The notes under the pieces: generated by a model
Told to the model about the DNA's origin: nothing
Databases searched by the model: none
The model's input: the letters and a program-made list of their open reading frames with translations, nothing else
DNA from: Patescibacteria group bacterium
GTDB lineage: Bacteria; Patescibacteriota; Saccharimonadia; Saccharimonadales; JANWIN01
Length of the DNA: 64,000 nt
Direction: 5' to 3'
NCBI GenBank assembly: GCA_035480855.1
Contig: DATIHJ010000019.1
Location: forward strand, 80,096-144,095
Position numbers and translations under genes: made by a program
In this document: piece by piece, positions 18,755 through 40,442 of the stretch
Position numbering within the stretch: position 1 is the stretch's first letter
Layout: each line of letters begins with the position of its first letter

Positions 18755-18782
18755 TTGACTTTTCAGCTCCTACTGATAACAT
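18755..18782 (+). promoter_or_regulatory. Promoter TTGACT-16 nt-TGaTAACAT, 6 nt upstream of mini-ORF ATG 18789
   Basis: -35 at 18755-60, TG at 18774-75, -10 at 18777-82. Confidence 0.4.
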
Positions 18783-18788
18783 TTTAGT

Positions 18789-18842
18789 ATGTCCTGTGAC
18801 AAACAAGTATACGCAAAGAACGCCTTTGCCATCCGCAACTAG
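18789..18842 (+). CDS. Candidate leaderless leader peptide, 17 aa (MSCDKQVYAKNAFAIRN)
   Basis: Hand translation. The ATG lies 6 nt after the -10. The stop TAG (18840-42) abuts the antiterminator strand GCGGTT (18842-47). Confidence 0.35.
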   Translation: MSCDKQVYAKNAFAIRN

Positions 18843-18890
18843 CGGTTGACTTACTTGTTACGCCCCACAAGACACCATAGCAAGAAAAGT

Positions 18891-18914
18891 AAACCGCCCG
18901 GAAGGCGGTTTTTT
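18891..18914 (+). terminator. Intrinsic terminator AAACCGCC-CGGAA-GGCGGTTTTTT (end of the ribosomal operon and/or attenuator of the pheA-like gene)
   Basis: 8-bp GC-rich stem (18891-98 / 18904-11) plus a T6 tract. SD GAGGAG and ATG 18932 follow. Confidence 0.75.
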
Positions 18915-18931
18915 AACCCCGAGGAGTATTA

Positions 18932-19852
18932 ATGGAACCAAAAAAAGTTGCGTTCCAGGGTGAAGTAGGTTCGCACCATGAGGGTGTTACCAAACAGAAG
19001 TTCGCAGATGAGGATATTGAGATGGTTTATATGGCGAGCTTTAGTGATGTATATACTGCTGTCGCAAACGGTACCGTCGATCAAGCTATTGTTGCCGTAG
19101 GCAATACTAACATCACGTCAATCAGCGATTCAACTGACGCACTATTGACTGGTAGATTTTACGTACGGGATGACATTTTTTATGAAGTAAAGCATAGTCT
19201 GGGCGGTGTAGAAGGCGCTACCATTGAAGGAGCACGCGAAATTCATTCCAATGTGCACGCCCTAAGACAATGTACGGCATTATTCAAAAGACTGCCGGGA
19301 GTTCTGGCTGTGCCGGAAACAGACACAGCCAAAAGTGCTCGCCAAGTAAAGGCAGCAGGAGATGTAGGCATATTAGCGATTGCCAGCGCCGAGGCCCTTG
19401 AAGTAAACGGGCTTGTCACGGTTGAAGCAGATGTGCAAGATCCGCATAACTATACTCGCTTTATGGTTGTAGAAAAACTAAATGGCCAGAGACCCAGAGT
19501 TGGCCATACCAGAACTACTATGCTAATCACAATTAATAACACTCCTAAATCATTAGCGGATGCGCTGGCTGTATTCGGCGAAGACAACATAGATCTTTCA
19601 TTGATAGAAACTCCAGGTGTTACGGCAGGACACCCAAGGACAAGAGTCTTAGTTGAAGTAAAGGCGGGTCTATATAATCGCGCTATGCAATCCGCCATGG
19701 GTCGTTTAGTCGCAGATGGAACTGTTAAAGTCAGGTTTATTGGTAGCTACAACGGAGATGAATTGCCAGCAGGCGAATATAGTAGCGAAGAATGGGAAGA
19801 GCCCGAAACAAATATTAATATCGAAGAATTTGTCGCTTCCCTCGAAATGTAG
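18932..19852 (+). CDS. pheA: Prephenate dehydratase-like protein (PDT domain plus a divergent ACT domain)
   Basis: N-terminal KVAFQGEVGSHHE, the PDT signature ...NYTRFMVV, and a C-terminal ACT-like region with IETPG in place of the usual IESRP. Confidence 0.6.
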   Translation: MEPKKVAFQGEVGSHHEGVTKQKFADEDIEMVYMASFSDVYTAVANGTVDQAIVAVGNTNITSISDSTDALLTGRFYVRDDIFYEVKHSLGGVEGATIEGAREIHSNVHALRQCTALFKRLPGVLAVPETDTAKSARQVKAAGDVGILAIASAEALEVNGLVTVEADVQDPHNYTRFMVVEKLNGQRPRVGHTRTTMLITINNTPKSLADALAVFGEDNIDLSLIETPGVTAGHPRTRVLVEVKAGLYNRAMQSAMGRLVADGTVKVRFIGSYNGDELPAGEYSSEEWEEPETNINIEEFVASLEM

Positions 19853-19857
19853 CAAAG

Positions 19858-19886
19858 TTGCTAGAGAGCAATATCCGTGATAAAGT
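19858..19886 (+). promoter_or_regulatory. Promoter TTGCTA-17 nt-TGaTAAAGT, 7 nt upstream of mini-ORF ATG 19894
   Basis: -35 at 19858-63, TG at 19878-79, -10 at 19881-86. Confidence 0.45.
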
Positions 19887-19893
19887 ATCCTTC

Positions 19894-19971
19894 ATGTCAA
19901 ATACGACAATCCAAAATTCAAACTATTGGTTTACAGACACTGCTCGTGGCGGTTTGCTCCATATGTTTTAA
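19894..19971 (+). CDS. Candidate leaderless leader peptide, 25 aa (MSNTTIQNSNYWFTDTARGGLLHMF) with consecutive Tyr-Trp-Phe codons
   Basis: Hand translation. TAT-TGG-TTT at 19924-32. Contains the antiterminator strand GGCGGTTT (19948-55). Confidence 0.45.
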   Translation: MSNTTIQNSNYWFTDTARGGLLHMF

Positions 19972-19992
19972 AAAATTTAGAACCTACCGAAT

Positions 19993-20016
19993 AAACCGCC
20001 ACTCAGGCGGTTTTTT
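19993..20016 (+). terminator. Intrinsic terminator AAACCGCC-ACTCA-GGCGGTTTTTT (stem identical to the one at 18891)
   Basis: 8-bp stem (19993-20000 / 20006-13) plus a T tract. SD AGGAGG and ATG 20038 follow. Confidence 0.75.
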
Positions 20017-20037
20017 AATACAATATAGGAGGAATTA

Positions 20038-20235
20038 ATGTCAGATAGAATAAAAACTGACGGACCTTCGGAGGAAGAGGCAGCTGCCTTTTTAAGGAAA
20101 AGTGGCGTAGAGAGAGGTCCAGACGAATTTCGTACTGCACTACATATCGCTAGTTTGTTAAGGAGTACAGGCAGTCCAGCAGAGCCGAGGACAGAGCAAA
20201 CTGATGTAGCTGAATCTATAGATGAACCTAGTTAA
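20038..20235 (+). CDS. Hypothetical acidic 65-aa protein
   Basis: Strong SD AGGAGG 7 nt upstream. No recognisable family. Confidence 0.45.
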   Translation: MSDRIKTDGPSEEEAAAFLRKSGVERGPDEFRTALHIASLLRSTGSPAEPRTEQTDVAESIDEPS

Positions 20236-20252
20236 CAACAGGGTTTATAGGA

Positions 20253-20258
20253 TATAAT
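20253..20258 (+). promoter_or_regulatory. -10 box TATAAT 8 nt upstream of the trpS ATG (leaderless geometry)
   Basis: No SD between the box and ATG 20267. Confidence 0.4.
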
Positions 20259-20266
20259 TACATTCA

Positions 20267-21298
20267 ATGAGTAAGCAGGTAATTTTGACAGGGCTTAGAG
20301 CCAATAGTGAGTTTCACTTAGGTAACTATCTTGGTGCCATTTTGCCTATGGTAGATGTGCAAAAGAAACATGCCGGGGATTACCAGCTGAATATGTTTGT
20401 CCCAGACCTTCACAGCTTCACTACACCAATCGACCATGGCAAGCTTTATCAGAACACTTTAGATAATTTAAAGGTTTTTGACGCAGCAGGCCTAGATATA
20501 GAAAATTCTGATACATTCATTTACAGGCAGAGTTACATACCAGCGCACAGTGAACTTGCATGGATACTTGACTGCTTTACTTATTTTGGTGAGGCAAGCA
20601 GAATGATTGAGTTTAAAGACAAGTCACAAAAGTTTGGTAATGATACCGTTAGTGTCGGCCAGTTCAACTATCCAGTACTAATGGCAGCAGACATTTTGTT
20701 ATATGGTGCGGAATGGGTTCCACTGGGTGACGATCAGCAACAGCATCTTGAGCTTGCCCGCGATCTGGGTATGCGTATGAACAATAAGTTTGGTGATTTG
20801 TTTGTTGTGCCGCGTGAATGGAAAAAGCAACTGGAGTTTACGGATAGGACTAGCGTACGCATCCGCTCGCTGCGAAACCCAGAAAAAAAGATGAGCAAAA
20901 GTGTGGAAGACCCCGCCGGCACAATTATGCTCAATGACAAACCAGACGAAGCCGTAAAGAAGATTATGAGTGCCACAACTGATTCTGTGGGATCAATTCA
21001 CCTGGACTGGGATAAACAACCCGGCATTAGCAATTTACTTCAAATAAGCGCTCTCTTACAAGGTCAAAACATGCAGGACACAGCTAAGGAGTGGGAAGGC
21101 AAGACAAGCTACGGAGAACTAAAGGAGCATACTGCTGAGCTTGTTAAAAAGTTTTTGTCGGAGCTGCAGCCAAAAGTAATGAGTATTAGCGAAGAAACTG
21201 TACTCAAAAAGCTGGAGCAAGACGAGGCAGCCATGACTAAAGTAGCCAATGCCACCTTACTAAAAGTTCAAAAGGCGGTGGGACTAAGGTCAGAGTGA
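20267..21298 (+). CDS. trpS: Tryptophanyl-tRNA synthetase
   Basis: Class I HIGH-type motif (FHLGNYLGA) and KMSKS. Confidence 0.93.
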   Translation: MSKQVILTGLRANSEFHLGNYLGAILPMVDVQKKHAGDYQLNMFVPDLHSFTTPIDHGKLYQNTLDNLKVFDAAGLDIENSDTFIYRQSYIPAHSELAWILDCFTYFGEASRMIEFKDKSQKFGNDTVSVGQFNYPVLMAADILLYGAEWVPLGDDQQQHLELARDLGMRMNNKFGDLFVVPREWKKQLEFTDRTSVRIRSLRNPEKKMSKSVEDPAGTIMLNDKPDEAVKKIMSATTDSVGSIHLDWDKQPGISNLLQISALLQGQNMQDTAKEWEGKTSYGELKEHTAELVKKFLSELQPKVMSISEETVLKKLEQDEAAMTKVANATLLKVQKAVGLRSE

Positions 21299-23071: not shown

Positions 23072-23725
23072 ATGTTTGAACTAGGTTTAGTACTGGGCTT
23101 TGGGCTTCTGGCAGTTCGTAGCGCCCAGGTTCGTGACGAGGAACTATCCGCCATTCCGCGCCGTATTAGCGACAAGCTAGGTAAGCTTTGGGACATAGCT
23201 CATCAGGGTATGCGCGAAAACCGTTTCCTGAGGGCTGAAAAGGCCTTACTAACCATCCTAAAGATAGACGAGCGTAATGCGGCGGCCTATAACCGTCTTG
23301 GCATACTCTATGCCAAACAAAAGGAATATAAAGACGCTATAGACTGCTTTGAGATAGCCAGCAGCATAGAATCCACACCTTCTAGCTTGCATAACCTGGG
23401 ACTAATTTATTACGAGACCGAAAACTATCAAAAGGCAGCCATAGCATTTGAACAGTCCCTTAAACTAGAAGACACCTATGCCGCCCGGCATATTGCCTAC
23501 GCCAAGGTACAAGAGAAGTTGGGAAACCAAAAGTTAATGCTTCAGGAATTAGAACGTGCTGCAGAGCTCGAGCCTAATAAAGAGACCTACAACTTGCTTA
23601 TCAAAGCCTACGACGATTTAGGTATGGCGGTGGAAGCTGACCAACTCAAAGACCGTTTAGCCAAGCTTGTAGTGCCAGCAGGACGCTCCAAACGCGTCCT
23701 CCGCCCTCGCAAGGTTGTTATTTGA
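23072..23725 (+). CDS. TPR-repeat protein with N-terminal membrane anchor
   Basis: Repeated AxYNLGxxY-type TPR units (AAAYNRLGILYAKQKEYKDAIDCFE...). Confidence 0.75.
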   Translation: MFELGLVLGFGLLAVRSAQVRDEELSAIPRRISDKLGKLWDIAHQGMRENRFLRAEKALLTILKIDERNAAAYNRLGILYAKQKEYKDAIDCFEIASSIESTPSSLHNLGLIYYETENYQKAAIAFEQSLKLEDTYAARHIAYAKVQEKLGNQKLMLQELERAAELEPNKETYNLLIKAYDDLGMAVEADQLKDRLAKLVVPAGRSKRVLRPRKVVI

Positions 23726-33896: not shown

Positions 33897-35595
33897 TTTT
33901 TAAGCCATGATGAACACGCATGGCCTTATTTAGGGCATTTACCACTCGGCTAAAGGTTCGTATGCCGCCTTTGTATGCTATGTAGCGATTCTGCCAACGT
34001 GGCTCGTATTTTGCCTTGAACCGATACAGTCCACTGAATGAGTAAAATCGGTCGCCGTTTGCGTATACGAACTGTAAAGCGCTATCGATAATGGTCTTAT
34101 CTTCGTCGGCCTGGTATTTGAGGCCAGTAAGCGGGCAAAGTCCCAGATTAAGACTGTCAAACCCGTTTGCGTGCAGATATTTGGCAAATTCTATCAGTAA
34201 AAAGTCATTGGTATTACTTATTGCCACACTACTTTGCCGCAGCAAGTCGTAGTTAGCTTCTTTTACGTCAAAACTGGGTATTTGGTTTATAAATCCCTGT
34301 ACAATTCCATCTTTATCAATTGCGGCCAAAATATGGCTCATTTGCATATATTCCGCTGTGAAATGTCCCATCATTAACCCTCGCTCTGCTCGTCCTGGAA
34401 GTTTGAGCCATTCATTAGAAATGTTACGCAGGCGATTTATGAGTTCTGGAGAATGAGGCGGTAAAAGCATCTTAGCCTCATAACCCTCGCGTCCAAACCG
34501 GTTACTAATTTGACGGAAATATTTATTACGGCTAGTGGACTGAGTGAATTCGCCCAATTCAAGAATTGCTTCCTGACCAATTTTTTGTAGGCTATAACCA
34601 TTAGTTTTGTAGAAACTAGACCATTTTGGCTCAGTGTGTATAAATGCCGGAGTCCAATCGTTTGTGCGGCAAAGCTCATGGAATTTTGTAAGCAGTTGGG
34701 CGGTAGCAACTTTCTGCCCGACAGGATCGCCTACAACTAAAGCCACTCCGCGCTCTACGCGGAATGCCAGCCCAGCCTGGTTACCAGCCGCTAAATAATA
34801 GCCTTTATCATGCGGCCAAAGTTTAAAGAAATCTTCACTGGAGCCGCCATACCGCTCCAATAGCTCCTTTAGTATTAAACGGTTGCGGTTCTGGTCACTC
34901 AACCGCGCTTTAATCGGTTGAAATAACGAAATCGCTACATATGCCAAGGCCGTAGCGCTGACTAACGACAGTGAGTTTAAAAACAGATGTCCTCGAGCAG
35001 TAAAGGCGATTAGCGCCTTATTAGTAGTTAAGCCAAACTGGTCCACCGTATAGTGTGCGGCTTGGACTAGGCTTATTTCTTGTCTAAAATCATGCTTATC
35101 AAGCAGCTGGAATCCAATTACCCCATACAAAAAGGCTATGATGAGTACTAGACAAATAAACCGCAGGGACAGGGCAAAGTTGCGAATATCACTCCTGACT
35201 GTAAACTCATGACGGTAGTACGCTAGGCTACATAGTACGACCAGAGGTAAAACGATAGATCGCAAGAAGTGTGTAGCGCCAAAATCATCAAACGACATAG
35301 ATGACAGATAGGGTGCTGTATTTAGACCCAGCAAAAATGCATACAGGCCAATGGTAATCGCCCAGGCAATCTGTTTCCGACGTACTAGCAAGGTAGATAG
35401 ATAAATAAAACTCATACCAATAATTATTGACACACTTATTCGGGCGTCGCTGGTTGCGGTATGTCTAAAAATAGTAATGTGGCTGGCGAGCACACTGGCA
35501 ATAATCAACAGGCCGTTAGCAAATACGCCAAAGGCCACTAGCCTGAGGACAAACAGTTTGCGTACTAAATGCCGCTTTTGCTGGGTATCAGCCAT
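33886..35595 (-). CDS. mprF: Aminoacyl-phosphatidylglycerol synthase (MprF-type C-terminal DUF2156 domain with an N-terminal polytopic membrane domain)
   Basis: 6-7 N-terminal TM helices. C-terminal FVYANGDRFYSFSGLYRFKAKYEPRWQNRYIAY is typical of lysyl-PG synthase domains. Confidence 0.75.
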   Translation of the reverse strand: MADTQQKRHLVRKLFVLRLVAFGVFANGLLIIASVLASHITIFRHTATSDARISVSIIIGMSFIYLSTLLVRRKQIAWAITIGLYAFLLGLNTAPYLSSMSFDDFGATHFLRSIVLPLVVLCSLAYYRHEFTVRSDIRNFALSLRFICLVLIIAFLYGVIGFQLLDKHDFRQEISLVQAAHYTVDQFGLTTNKALIAFTARGHLFLNSLSLVSATALAYVAISLFQPIKARLSDQNRNRLILKELLERYGGSSEDFFKLWPHDKGYYLAAGNQAGLAFRVERGVALVVGDPVGQKVATAQLLTKFHELCRTNDWTPAFIHTEPKWSSFYKTNGYSLQKIGQEAILELGEFTQSTSRNKYFRQISNRFGREGYEAKMLLPPHSPELINRLRNISNEWLKLPGRAERGLMMGHFTAEYMQMSHILAAIDKDGIVQGFINQIPSFDVKEANYDLLRQSSVAISNTNDFLLIEFAKYLHANGFDSLNLGLCPLTGLKYQADEDKTIIDSALQFVYANGDRFYSFSGLYRFKAKYEPRWQNRYIAYKGGIRTFSRVVNALNKAMRVHHGLKISS

Positions 35596-39720: not shown

Positions 39721-39749
39721 TTGTATCTTACAAGTGTTTCTTGTAGAAT
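39721..39749 (+). promoter_or_regulatory. Candidate rplJL promoter (TTGTAT-17 nt-TAGAAT)
   Basis: -35 at 39721-26, -10 at 39744-49. Confidence 0.5.
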
Positions 39750-39831
39750 ATCTTTAGTTACCAAAGACAGCGACTGTGTAATAACTTAATTTGTCGCCGA
39801 GGTTTAAACAATACTTGTTTTCTCGTAATTT

Positions 39832-39857
39832 GTCTTTGGATGTCCAAAGACTTTTTT
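39832..39857 (+). terminator. Terminator-like hairpin inside the rplJ leader (L10-leader-type attenuator)
   Basis: GTCTTTGG-ATGT-CCAAAGAC followed by a T6 tract. An upstream copy of CCAAAGAC (39761-68) can pair with the 5' arm. Confidence 0.55.
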
Positions 39858-39914
39858 ATTACGGTAACTAAACCCGAGGTGGTCGATCCGGGCTAAACAA
39901 TAAGGAGACACACA

Positions 39915-40442
39915 GTGTCACTAACCAAAGATAAGAAACATGAAGTTGTTGACCAAATTGGTCAGTTACTAAGTGATGCCAAGCTAACAGTTGTTGCCAA
40001 ATACGAAGGTACAACCGTAAAAGCCATGCAGGACTTGCGTAAGCAAGCCAAAGACACCGGCACTATGGTGCATGTTGTCAAAAACCGCCTGGTTATCAAG
40101 GCAGTTGAGAGCAATGAAGCTCTAAAAAGTGTTGACACCAGCGCATTGCGCGGACAGTTACTTTACGCCTTTAACAGCGAGGATGAAGTAGCACCGGCGC
40201 AAGTTTTGGCCAACTTTGCAAAATTACAGCCACAACTACAGTTTGTAGGCGCGATTACAGCAGACGGGAAGTTCCTAGGCGCGGACGATGTTAAGGCGCT
40301 AGCTAGCTTGCCAAGCAAGGATCAGTTACGAGCCCAACTAGTCGGTACCATTGGTGCACCTCTCAGTGGCTTTGTTAATGTTCTATCGGGGAATTTGCGA
40401 GGTTTCCTGAACGTATTAAGTGCAAAAGCAGAATTAAGTTAA
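39915..40442 (+). CDS. rplJ: 50S ribosomal protein L10
   Basis: GTG start after SD AAGGAGA. Sequence and position upstream of rplL. Confidence 0.94.

Follow-up and report, generated by a model that had tools for sequence, protein, structure and literature searches.

Between a gene for a prephenate dehydratase-like (PDT-like) protein and trpS, the gene for tryptophanyl-tRNA synthetase (TrpRS), the genome of a member of the Saccharibacteria carries a short element that an original prediction, made from the letters of the DNA, had described as a leader-peptide switch between a terminator and an antiterminator. The element was analysed in a 64,000-nucleotide stretch of contig DATIHJ010000019.1 (assembly GCA_035480855.1, Patescibacteria group bacterium, order Saccharimonadales), which is called the window below and whose positions are counted from its first letter. 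All genes at the locus lie on the forward (+) strand in the order rplQ-rplM-rpsI, the PDT-like gene (18932-19852, stop 19850-52), the element, an open reading frame (ORF) of 65 amino acids, trpS (20267-21298), an rluD-like gene and a holB-like gene. Pfam confirmed both the PDT domain upstream and the class I Trp/Tyr tRNA synthetase downstream (PF00579, 2.6e-53), and the 3' end of trpS overlaps the rluD-like gene, which starts at 21295.

On direct reading, a -35-like TTGCTA (19858-19863) is followed after a 17-nt spacer by an extended -10 sequence, TG-a-TAAAGT (19878-19886), that ends 7 nt 5' of an ATG at 19894. This ATG opens a leader ORF of 25 codons and a stop, MSNTTIQNSNYWFTDTARGGLLHMF (19894-19971, stop 19969-71), which is missing from the gene calls on the contig's public record; no sequence like a Shine-Dalgarno (SD) motif was seen 5' of the ATG. 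Codons 11-13 are TAT-TGG-TTT (Tyr-Trp-Phe, 19924-19932). Further on in the ORF stands GGCGGTTT (19948-55), and the same letters form the 3' arm (segment 4, 20006-13) of a predicted intrinsic terminator, AAACCGCC-ACTCA-GGCGGTTTTTT (19993-20016), which consists of an 8-bp GC-rich stem followed by T6 (U-tract 20011-16). A generic terminator scan, which extends the stem into the T-run, did not flag 19993-20016. Folding for minimum free energy (MFE) together with comparison delimits segment 2, GTGGCGGTTTG (19946-19956), as the antiterminator 5' strand inside the leader ORF, and folding with covariation delimits segment 3, TAAACCGCCAC (19992-20002), as the strand that can pair either with segment 2, to give the antiterminator, or with segment 4, to give the terminator. 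The 64-kb window contains GGCGGTTT seven times against 2.0 expected, and five of the seven copies sit in the element and the neighbouring rpsI terminator. Behind the terminator, an SD sequence AGGAGG (20027-32) precedes the 65-aa ORF (20038-20235). The gap of 31 nt between this ORF and trpS is free of a terminator and contains TATAAT (20253-20258), 8 nt 5' of the trpS ATG. Every feature and coordinate of the original prediction (promoter, mini-ORF, Tyr-Trp-Phe codons, terminator and SD) was thus found in place; its antiterminator of 8 bp is present as a complementarity but is longer than proposed, with 10-11 nt of 19946-56 facing 19992-20002.

Conservation of the Element

Because the PDT-like protein is nearly an orphan, with a best non-identical match of 32% identity, trpS loci from one genome per species were used for comparison, 57 loci in all and mostly from Saccharibacteria. 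A scan of the spacer from rpsI to trpS showed a mini-ORF with aromatic codons and a CCGCC/GGCGG terminator in many of these loci, with leaders such as MTKHLLNAYWFTNSSRGGLFRVL (L013), MTNITNRCYFWFKSHNVAVRSVRS (L012), MSNVTYRFFFWFTPFAKAVCSLRS (L005), MNKINRYYQFFWFTGSELAVSYVQ (L043) and MQAYQTSRFYFWFTYLSGRFVRSMS (L030). Full-length homologues of the element were present at 18 species-representative Saccharibacteria trpS loci, three of which have two copies. A covariance model built from 18 genome-derived copies found further copies in the same trpS loci and, in metagenomes, 58 full-length matches of at least 55 bits among 80 contigs taken from a DNA-pattern scan. It gave no match in Saccharibacteria loci with lower trpS identity, including Nanosyncoccus and metagenome-assembled genomes from animal guts. 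The final alignment of genome loci and metagenome contigs holds 75 copies with distinct leaders. The frame of the mini-ORF, its Trp codon and the complementarity of the two strands are kept in all 75 sequences, so that the original prediction withstood this comparison, and since every part of the element is conserved in them, the arrangement is more than chance.

Codons of the Leader ORF

The homologous leader ORFs have 16-28 codons, and every one of the 75 has a Trp codon in the frame set by its start codon. This TGG never varies in the alignments, although its position ranges from codon 8 to codon 13, and indels occur only in multiples of three. Exactly one Trp is encoded by 68 of the 75 leaders; Tyr or Phe stands before it in 68, and Phe stands after it, likewise in 68. 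Aromatic codons make up on average 3.7 of the eight codons around Trp (46%), against a background of 6%. The codons flanking Trp show swaps between Tyr and Phe and changes between TTT and TTC, so the constraint falls on the meaning of the codons and not on their nucleotides. Two residues after Trp, 17 of 22 leaders in the unbiased genome set have Thr, encoded by ACA, ACC or ACG; since the third position of this codon varies, Thr is conserved at the level of the amino acid. The C-terminal half of the leader peptide is not conserved as protein and is read in three frames.

Some leaders depart from the common form. Those at L016 (2923-3044), L049 (3007-3127), L079 (6419-6532) and L007 (2934-3068), with the sequences MINFVFKYWYTYTQSWRYCFY, MNKLLRNSIYWLYTTQSWRYYCS, MKSLIKQYIWRYHLKRWRY and MFTLRIIIKGYWLTISPP in this group, contain more Tyr or carry Leu behind Trp, and those of L016, L049 and L007 belong to a second, tandem copy before Asp/Glu-racemase-like genes or genes of no assigned function. 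Where a copy stands directly before trpS (L054, 3851-3974; L014, 3850-3981), its leader has Trp alone (MANKSHIQSWQSADERDGLFRALN) or only Trp-Phe (..ANWFK..), a composition that fits Trp-specific control of trpS.

Two Mutually Exclusive Helices

In its MFE fold, the whole window leader forms a long, imperfect hairpin of -34.6 kcal/mol (19939-20011) that excludes the terminator; it has a z-score of -4.9, and none of 200 shuffled sequences was as stable. Its 5' side overlaps coding sequence, and the GGCGG core of segment 2 falls in all three frames relative to the ATG (in 48, 22 and 5 sequences), so that the same nucleotides, GGCGGTTTGTTC..., read RGGLF (..RGGLFRVL) in some leaders and AVCS (..LAVCSVRS) in others. 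The conservation of GGCGG in three frames means that segment 2 is constrained as RNA.

For the antiterminator, formed by segments 2 and 3, the share of paired alignment cells is 80% over the 18 sequences and 84.8% over the 75, against 35-59% for slid controls, the unbiased evidence on pairing being the flanking pairs and the genome-derived set only. Across the 75 sequences, compensatory changes occur at 7 of its 11 pairs and it scores 0.162 for covariation; shuffles scored 0.112 +/- 0.009, and none of 500 reached the observed value. For the terminator, which is the consensus structure returned by RNAalifold, 95.8% of cells are paired and three pairs show compensatory changes; again, 0 of 500 shuffles reached the observed value. 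Compensatory changes are therefore seen in both helices.

The spacing of these parts is narrow. GGCGG follows the Trp codon at 19-22 nt in all 75 sequences. The stop codon lies between segments 2 and 3, at a median of 18 nt after segment 2 and 23-50 nt before segment 3; in the window copy, the stop (19969-71) is 21 nt before segment 3. When the RNA left free by a ribosome on the Trp codon was folded with segment 4 omitted, segments 2 and 3 paired with each other in every one of the 75 sequences, and the median energy of this fold was -21.4 kcal/mol compared with -12.7 kcal/mol for the terminator alone.

Promoter and Predicted Start of the Leader Transcript

A -10-like hexamer lies 6-9 nt 5' of the ATG, with no SD, in all of the first 18 homologues; it is often extended by TG, and TTGAC(A/T) often stands 16-17 nt further 5'. 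In the full alignment the hexamer is found at this distance in 51 of 75 leaders, compared with 7.7% of random ATGs, and an SD-like motif in two of 75. Since the -10 sequence of the window copy ends 7 nt before the ATG, the predicted transcription start falls on the A of ATG 19894 or directly beside it, and the mRNA would be leaderless. The same geometry had been claimed for other genes of the window, and it is indeed seen there: among 75 long ORFs, at least 12 lack an SD and show TAnnnT, frequently in the form TATAAT, 6-10 nt 5' of the ATG, and 34 have an SD. Examples are the genes that start at 23072, 33270, 41759, 46865 and 51411 on the + strand and those that end at 35595 and 60837 on the - strand, and leaderless genes appear to be common in this genome.

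Genes Downstream of the Element

In the relatives, an SD-led gene always lies 3' of the element on the same strand, within about 12-55 nt. The first gene after the terminator encodes 3-deoxy-D-arabino-heptulosonate 7-phosphate (DAHP) synthase (PF00793, 4e-70 in L004), prephenate dehydratase (L005, L008, L009, L016, L043 and L046), an ACT-domain protein (L007), a small protein of 51-128 aa or, at L014 and L054, TrpRS itself, and an Asp/Glu-racemase-like gene stands behind the Tyr-rich variant leaders of L016 and L049. Further downstream, trpS and then rluD follow in most relatives whose contigs are long enough. Phe and Tyr codons are more numerous in leaders that stand before biosynthetic genes than in the others (3.65 vs 2.56; Mann-Whitney p = 8e-4, phylogeny not corrected).

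The DAHP synthase and PDT-like genes stand isolated in the gap between rpsI and trpS of several Saccharibacteria, with such genes at L004 (2762-3967), L030 (2687-3943) and L012 (3046-3996) and PDT genes in the six loci named above and in the window. Saccharibacteria are usually described as lacking amino-acid biosynthesis.

The trpS gene has no SD and carries a consensus TATAAT 7-10 nt before its ATG. In 32 of 53 related loci, TAnnnT, mostly as TATAAT, stands 5-10 nt 5' of trpS whether the element is present or not, and this looks like a conserved leaderless promoter of trpS itself.

A word-based search with the 65-aa ORF returned only the ORF itself. A profile built from neighbours, used alongside BLASTP clustering, found 19 relatives, and the ORF is a member of a fast-evolving small-protein family with the core EAxxLLxxxGVxxxxxDxRxxxxIAxxLG, which has no match in Pfam. 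In the AlphaFold model, two helices (residues 12-22 and 34-43) form a core of moderate confidence, at a predicted local distance difference test (pLDDT) score of about 80. Members of the family lie between the element, or a PDT or racemase-like gene, and trpS (L016, 3677-3949; L049, 3151-3411; P0014-P0031). Short forms of about 51-80 aa have only the N-terminal two-helix core in common, and long forms of about 86 aa have an additional conserved C-terminal part (..DQSRMI..GRIVEPIAYGQRVLQAV).

Proposed Mechanism of Attenuation

The element is probably a ribosome-mediated transcription attenuator whose leader peptide senses charged aromatic tRNAs, always that for Trp and in addition those for Tyr and Phe. 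The comparative evidence for this interpretation is strong and consists of the ORF and its frame, the codons, the two exclusive and covarying helices, the conserved distances, the promoter geometry and the downstream genes, all of them properties of the sequence; where transcription starts, that the ORF is translated, that ribosomes stall on it and in which direction the switch responds are inferred.

According to the model, a leaderless mRNA would begin at ATG 19894, and a ribosome would load on the 5' AUG and trail the RNA polymerase. Under starvation, when charged tRNA-Tyr, tRNA-Trp or tRNA-Phe is scarce, the ribosome would stall at codons 11-13 (19924-32) with its leading edge at about 19940, leaving segment 2 (19946-56) free to pair with segment 3 (19992-20002) as soon as the latter has left the polymerase. 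The terminator would then be blocked, and transcription would continue into the SD-led 65-aa ORF and on to trpS-rluD. That a stall at the Tyr-Trp-Phe codons frees the antiterminator strand, as originally proposed, fits with the distance of 19-22 nt from Trp to GGCGG and with the pairing of segments 2 and 3 in every aligned sequence. Under sufficiency, a ribosome decoding codons ~17-25 would cover segment 2 while segment 3, about 45 nt further on, emerges. It would then be held at the stop (19969-71), too distant on the 5' side to interfere with the 3:4 hairpin, and segment 3 would pair with segment 4 (20006-13) and the polymerase would terminate at the U-tract (20011-16).

Several observations weigh against this interpretation or narrow its reach. 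The first concerns the claim that a ribosome at the stop masks 19948-55. Full masking would occur while codons ~17-23 are being decoded; of segment 2, a ribosome parked at the stop would cover no more than the final 3-6 nt, and the model therefore depends on kinetics at this step. A conserved 1:2 (anti-antiterminator or pause) hairpin was not found, either in the RNAalifold consensus or in folds of the aromatic-codon region; trp, phe and his leaders typically have such a hairpin, though it is not universal. Without it, untranslated RNA should read through. The model predicts the same for RNA that begins further 5' and runs in from the PDT-like gene, where no terminator precedes the element, since the mini-ORF is then internal and has no SD. 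The antiterminator conformer of the window also gains a lower stem (19939-44/20006-11) abutting the U-tract, which could itself act as a partial terminator; the extension is not seen in the L013 fold. On the side of the peptide, the window copy has a single codon for each aromatic amino acid, and classical attenuator leaders have tandem runs of regulatory codons, while the conservation of Thr after Trp-Phe is not explained by simple codon sensing. The DNA pattern by which the metagenome set was preselected required TGGTTTAC, GGCGGTT and ACCGCC. Finally, the proposed coupling to the downstream ORF and trpS holds in the model for the 65-aa ORF, which would be gated directly, but trpS seems to have its own conserved promoter, and the element would therefore only add read-through transcription into trpS.

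A broader version of the same idea starts from the conservation of Trp-Phe-Thr(-Asp/Gly) as amino acids, which exceeds the needs of codon sensing. In it, the leader combines tRNA sensing with stalling by the nascent peptide, and the gated two-helix protein, which always stands between the element and trpS, is a hitherto unknown partner or regulator of TrpRS or of aromatic acquisition; this version is speculative and improbable. If it were true, Saccharibacteria, which are largely auxotrophic and depend on a host, would have a dedicated circuit for sensing external aromatic amino acids.

Alternative Explanations

The conserved Trp-Phe-Thr(-Asp/Gly) could act in the ribosomal tunnel and cause arrest of the TnaC kind, perhaps together with a free aromatic amino acid. 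The switch would then report the free amino acid and not tRNA charging, and its sign could be reversed, with abundance leading to read-through. Such a mechanism would account for the amino-acid-level conservation of Thr at W+2 in 17 of 22 unbiased leaders, for the single Trp codon and for a peptide motif that is far better conserved than the other leader codons. However, the number and identity of the flanking Tyr and Phe residues vary freely and scale with the type of downstream gene, which suits codon sensing, and the C-terminal half of the peptide, with its three reading frames, lacks conservation as protein. Induction of DAHP synthase, PDT or trpS under aromatic abundance would also be physiologically odd, and TnaC acts through Rho, not through an intrinsic terminator, whereas the element has an intrinsic terminator and antiterminator. 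We regard arrest of this kind as improbable.

It is at least as improbable that the element is an independent small gene whose RNA or peptide acts in trans, like rnTrpL/peTrpL of Sinorhizobium, with a hairpin that serves mainly as terminator or stabiliser and with secondary or absent control of the downstream genes. The element does come with a predicted promoter and a predicted terminator, and termination would yield a structured, stable RNA some 120 nt long. Functions in trans are on record for other RNAs and leader peptides that derive from attenuators (PMC6614838, PMC7298713), trpS seems to have a promoter of its own, and the Trp-less neighbour at 18789-18918 resembles a constitutive small structured transcript. 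A gene of this kind would nevertheless not need a duplicate of the terminator 3' arm inside its ORF that keeps a fixed distance from Trp and covaries with the terminator 5' arm, nor would it need to be followed on the same strand by an SD-led gene always within ~12-55 nt. A role in trans would supplement attenuation and not replace it.

In many Firmicutes, trpS is regulated by a T-box, and the rpsI terminator (18891-18916) uses the same CCGCC/GGCGG stem as the element; even so, it is exceedingly improbable, and effectively refuted by the comparative data, that the element is just the terminator of the gene before it next to a fortuitous repeat, or a T-box or riboswitch that works without translation, since no T-box reached the Rfam gathering threshold in the window and no T-box or riboswitch match appeared in Rfam even at E <= 10 in 19700-20350, the in-frame ATG...TGG, the indels in multiples of three, the open frame and the confinement of the stop between segments 2 and 3 speak for translation, and conservation over 75 sequences excludes chance.

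Comparison with Known Attenuators

No Rfam family reached its gathering threshold in the region of the element, and the amino-acid leaders of Rfam match it weakly. Phe_leader (RF01859) scored 25.5 bits against a gathering threshold of 55, with a match that spans the hairpin and terminator and not the peptide region, and Trp_leader (RF00513) scored 16.4 bits against 41, from the hairpin and terminator only; both assignments were rejected.

With E. coli trpL, the element shares the sensing of Trp codons by a translating ribosome and the alternative between segments 2:3 and 3:4. In contrast, trpL has two tandem Trp codons, an SD, a 1:2 hairpin and a stop before segment 2, whereas the stop of the Saccharibacteria element usually comes after segment 2; in one homologue, L003, the stop codon immediately precedes segment 2 and so resembles that of trpL. 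The lack of a 1:2 hairpin is a real difference from trpL, pheL and hisL. Vecchione and Sello reportedly described in 2010 that trpRS1 of Streptomyces coelicolor, which encodes an auxiliary, antibiotic-resistant TrpRS, is governed by ribosome-mediated attenuation at Trp codons.

The E. coli leaders of pheST and pheA also work by ribosome-mediated attenuation (PMC11802643). These leaders, pheM for pheST and pheL for pheA, resemble the element in their terminator/antiterminator logic and in their targets, a synthetase operon and a prephenate dehydratase, but they are SD-led and have long runs of one codon and a 1:2 hairpin. Their Phe-rich stretches, FFFYFST and FFFTFP, are similar in style to FFFWFT of the Saccharibacteria family.

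A leader with mixed aromatic codons is known from Corynebacterium glutamicum, where the aroR peptide (Phe-Tyr-Phe) precedes the DAHP synthase gene aroF (Neshat et al. 2014, summarised in PMC11802643 and PMC4046766). The likeness consists in a leader-peptide attenuator with mixed aromatic codons in front of a DAHP synthase operon. The element has one Trp that never varies and keeps to the rpsI-trpS locus; aroR, in contrast, is without a Trp codon, belongs to the Actinomycetota, has no detectable sequence relation to the element and is not linked to trpS.

Leader peptides made without SD are likewise on record. Synthesis of the ilvB leader peptide of C. glutamicum was reported to proceed in the absence of a ribosome-binding site (Morbach et al. 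2000, cited in PMC4046766), Deinococcus deserti has 14 leaderless leader peptides, including ones for tRNA-synthetase genes (PMC4007540), and Mycobacterium has leaderless poly-Cys small ORFs (bioRxiv 10.1101/834739). The element agrees with these leaders of other phyla in a peptide predicted to start at the 5' end of the transcript, the lack of an SD, the connection with aminoacyl-tRNA synthetases and a -10 sequence just upstream; it differs in that they belong to other phyla and families and that their starts were mapped experimentally, while the start here is deduced from sequence geometry. The original statement that no leaderless-peptide attenuator had been described was therefore mistaken, as such attenuators are known in Corynebacterium, Deinococcus and Mycobacterium. 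Its companion statement on reduced genomes of the candidate phyla radiation (CPR) agrees with the literature as we found it: no description of an attenuator was found for CPR bacteria or Saccharibacteria, and no paper linking these bacteria with leader peptides or attenuation.

Other Candidate Elements in the Window

A second unit of promoter, leaderless mini-ORF and terminator lies between rpsI and the PDT-like gene (18755-18918). It consists of TTGACT-16-TGATAACAT, followed after 6 nt by the ATG of a mini-ORF (18789-18842), and of a terminator (18891-18916). Its peptide, MSCDKQVYAKNAFAIRN, is conserved at L001 (1980-2104) as MSIDTQVSAKYAFAIALKR, and its 5' part folds very stably (z = -4.6 and -6.2). 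The match to the covariance model of the element is weak (28-31 bits), Ala replaces the Trp codon, and the MFE fold showed no alternative pairing with the unit's own terminator; a second attenuator of the same kind was rejected on these three grounds. Possible readings of the unit are a degenerate paralogue, a terminator that acts constitutively and a small RNA.

Elsewhere in the window, the Rfam L10_leader (RF00557) matches at 39743-39867 with 64.6 bits, above the gathering threshold and upstream of an rplJ-like gene at 39915, so that a classical ribosomal-protein leader is also present in this genome.

Implications for Saccharibacteria

As judged from sequence comparison, the element represents a new and unannotated family of a well-known kind of switch, and not a new mechanism. 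With 75 sequences it is ready for use as a covariance model, and it is currently missed by genome annotation. As far as we found, no cis-regulatory attenuator family for amino acids had been described before, and this one would be the first, in Saccharibacteria (CPR/Patescibacteria), a group in which little is known of gene regulation and most members cannot be cultured alone. The element would imply that transcription and translation are coupled in these cells and that leaderless mRNAs are translated efficiently enough for sensing. It would also bring the isolated genes for DAHP synthase and prephenate dehydratase-like proteins, the small-protein family and trpS together in one aromatic-responsive regulon.

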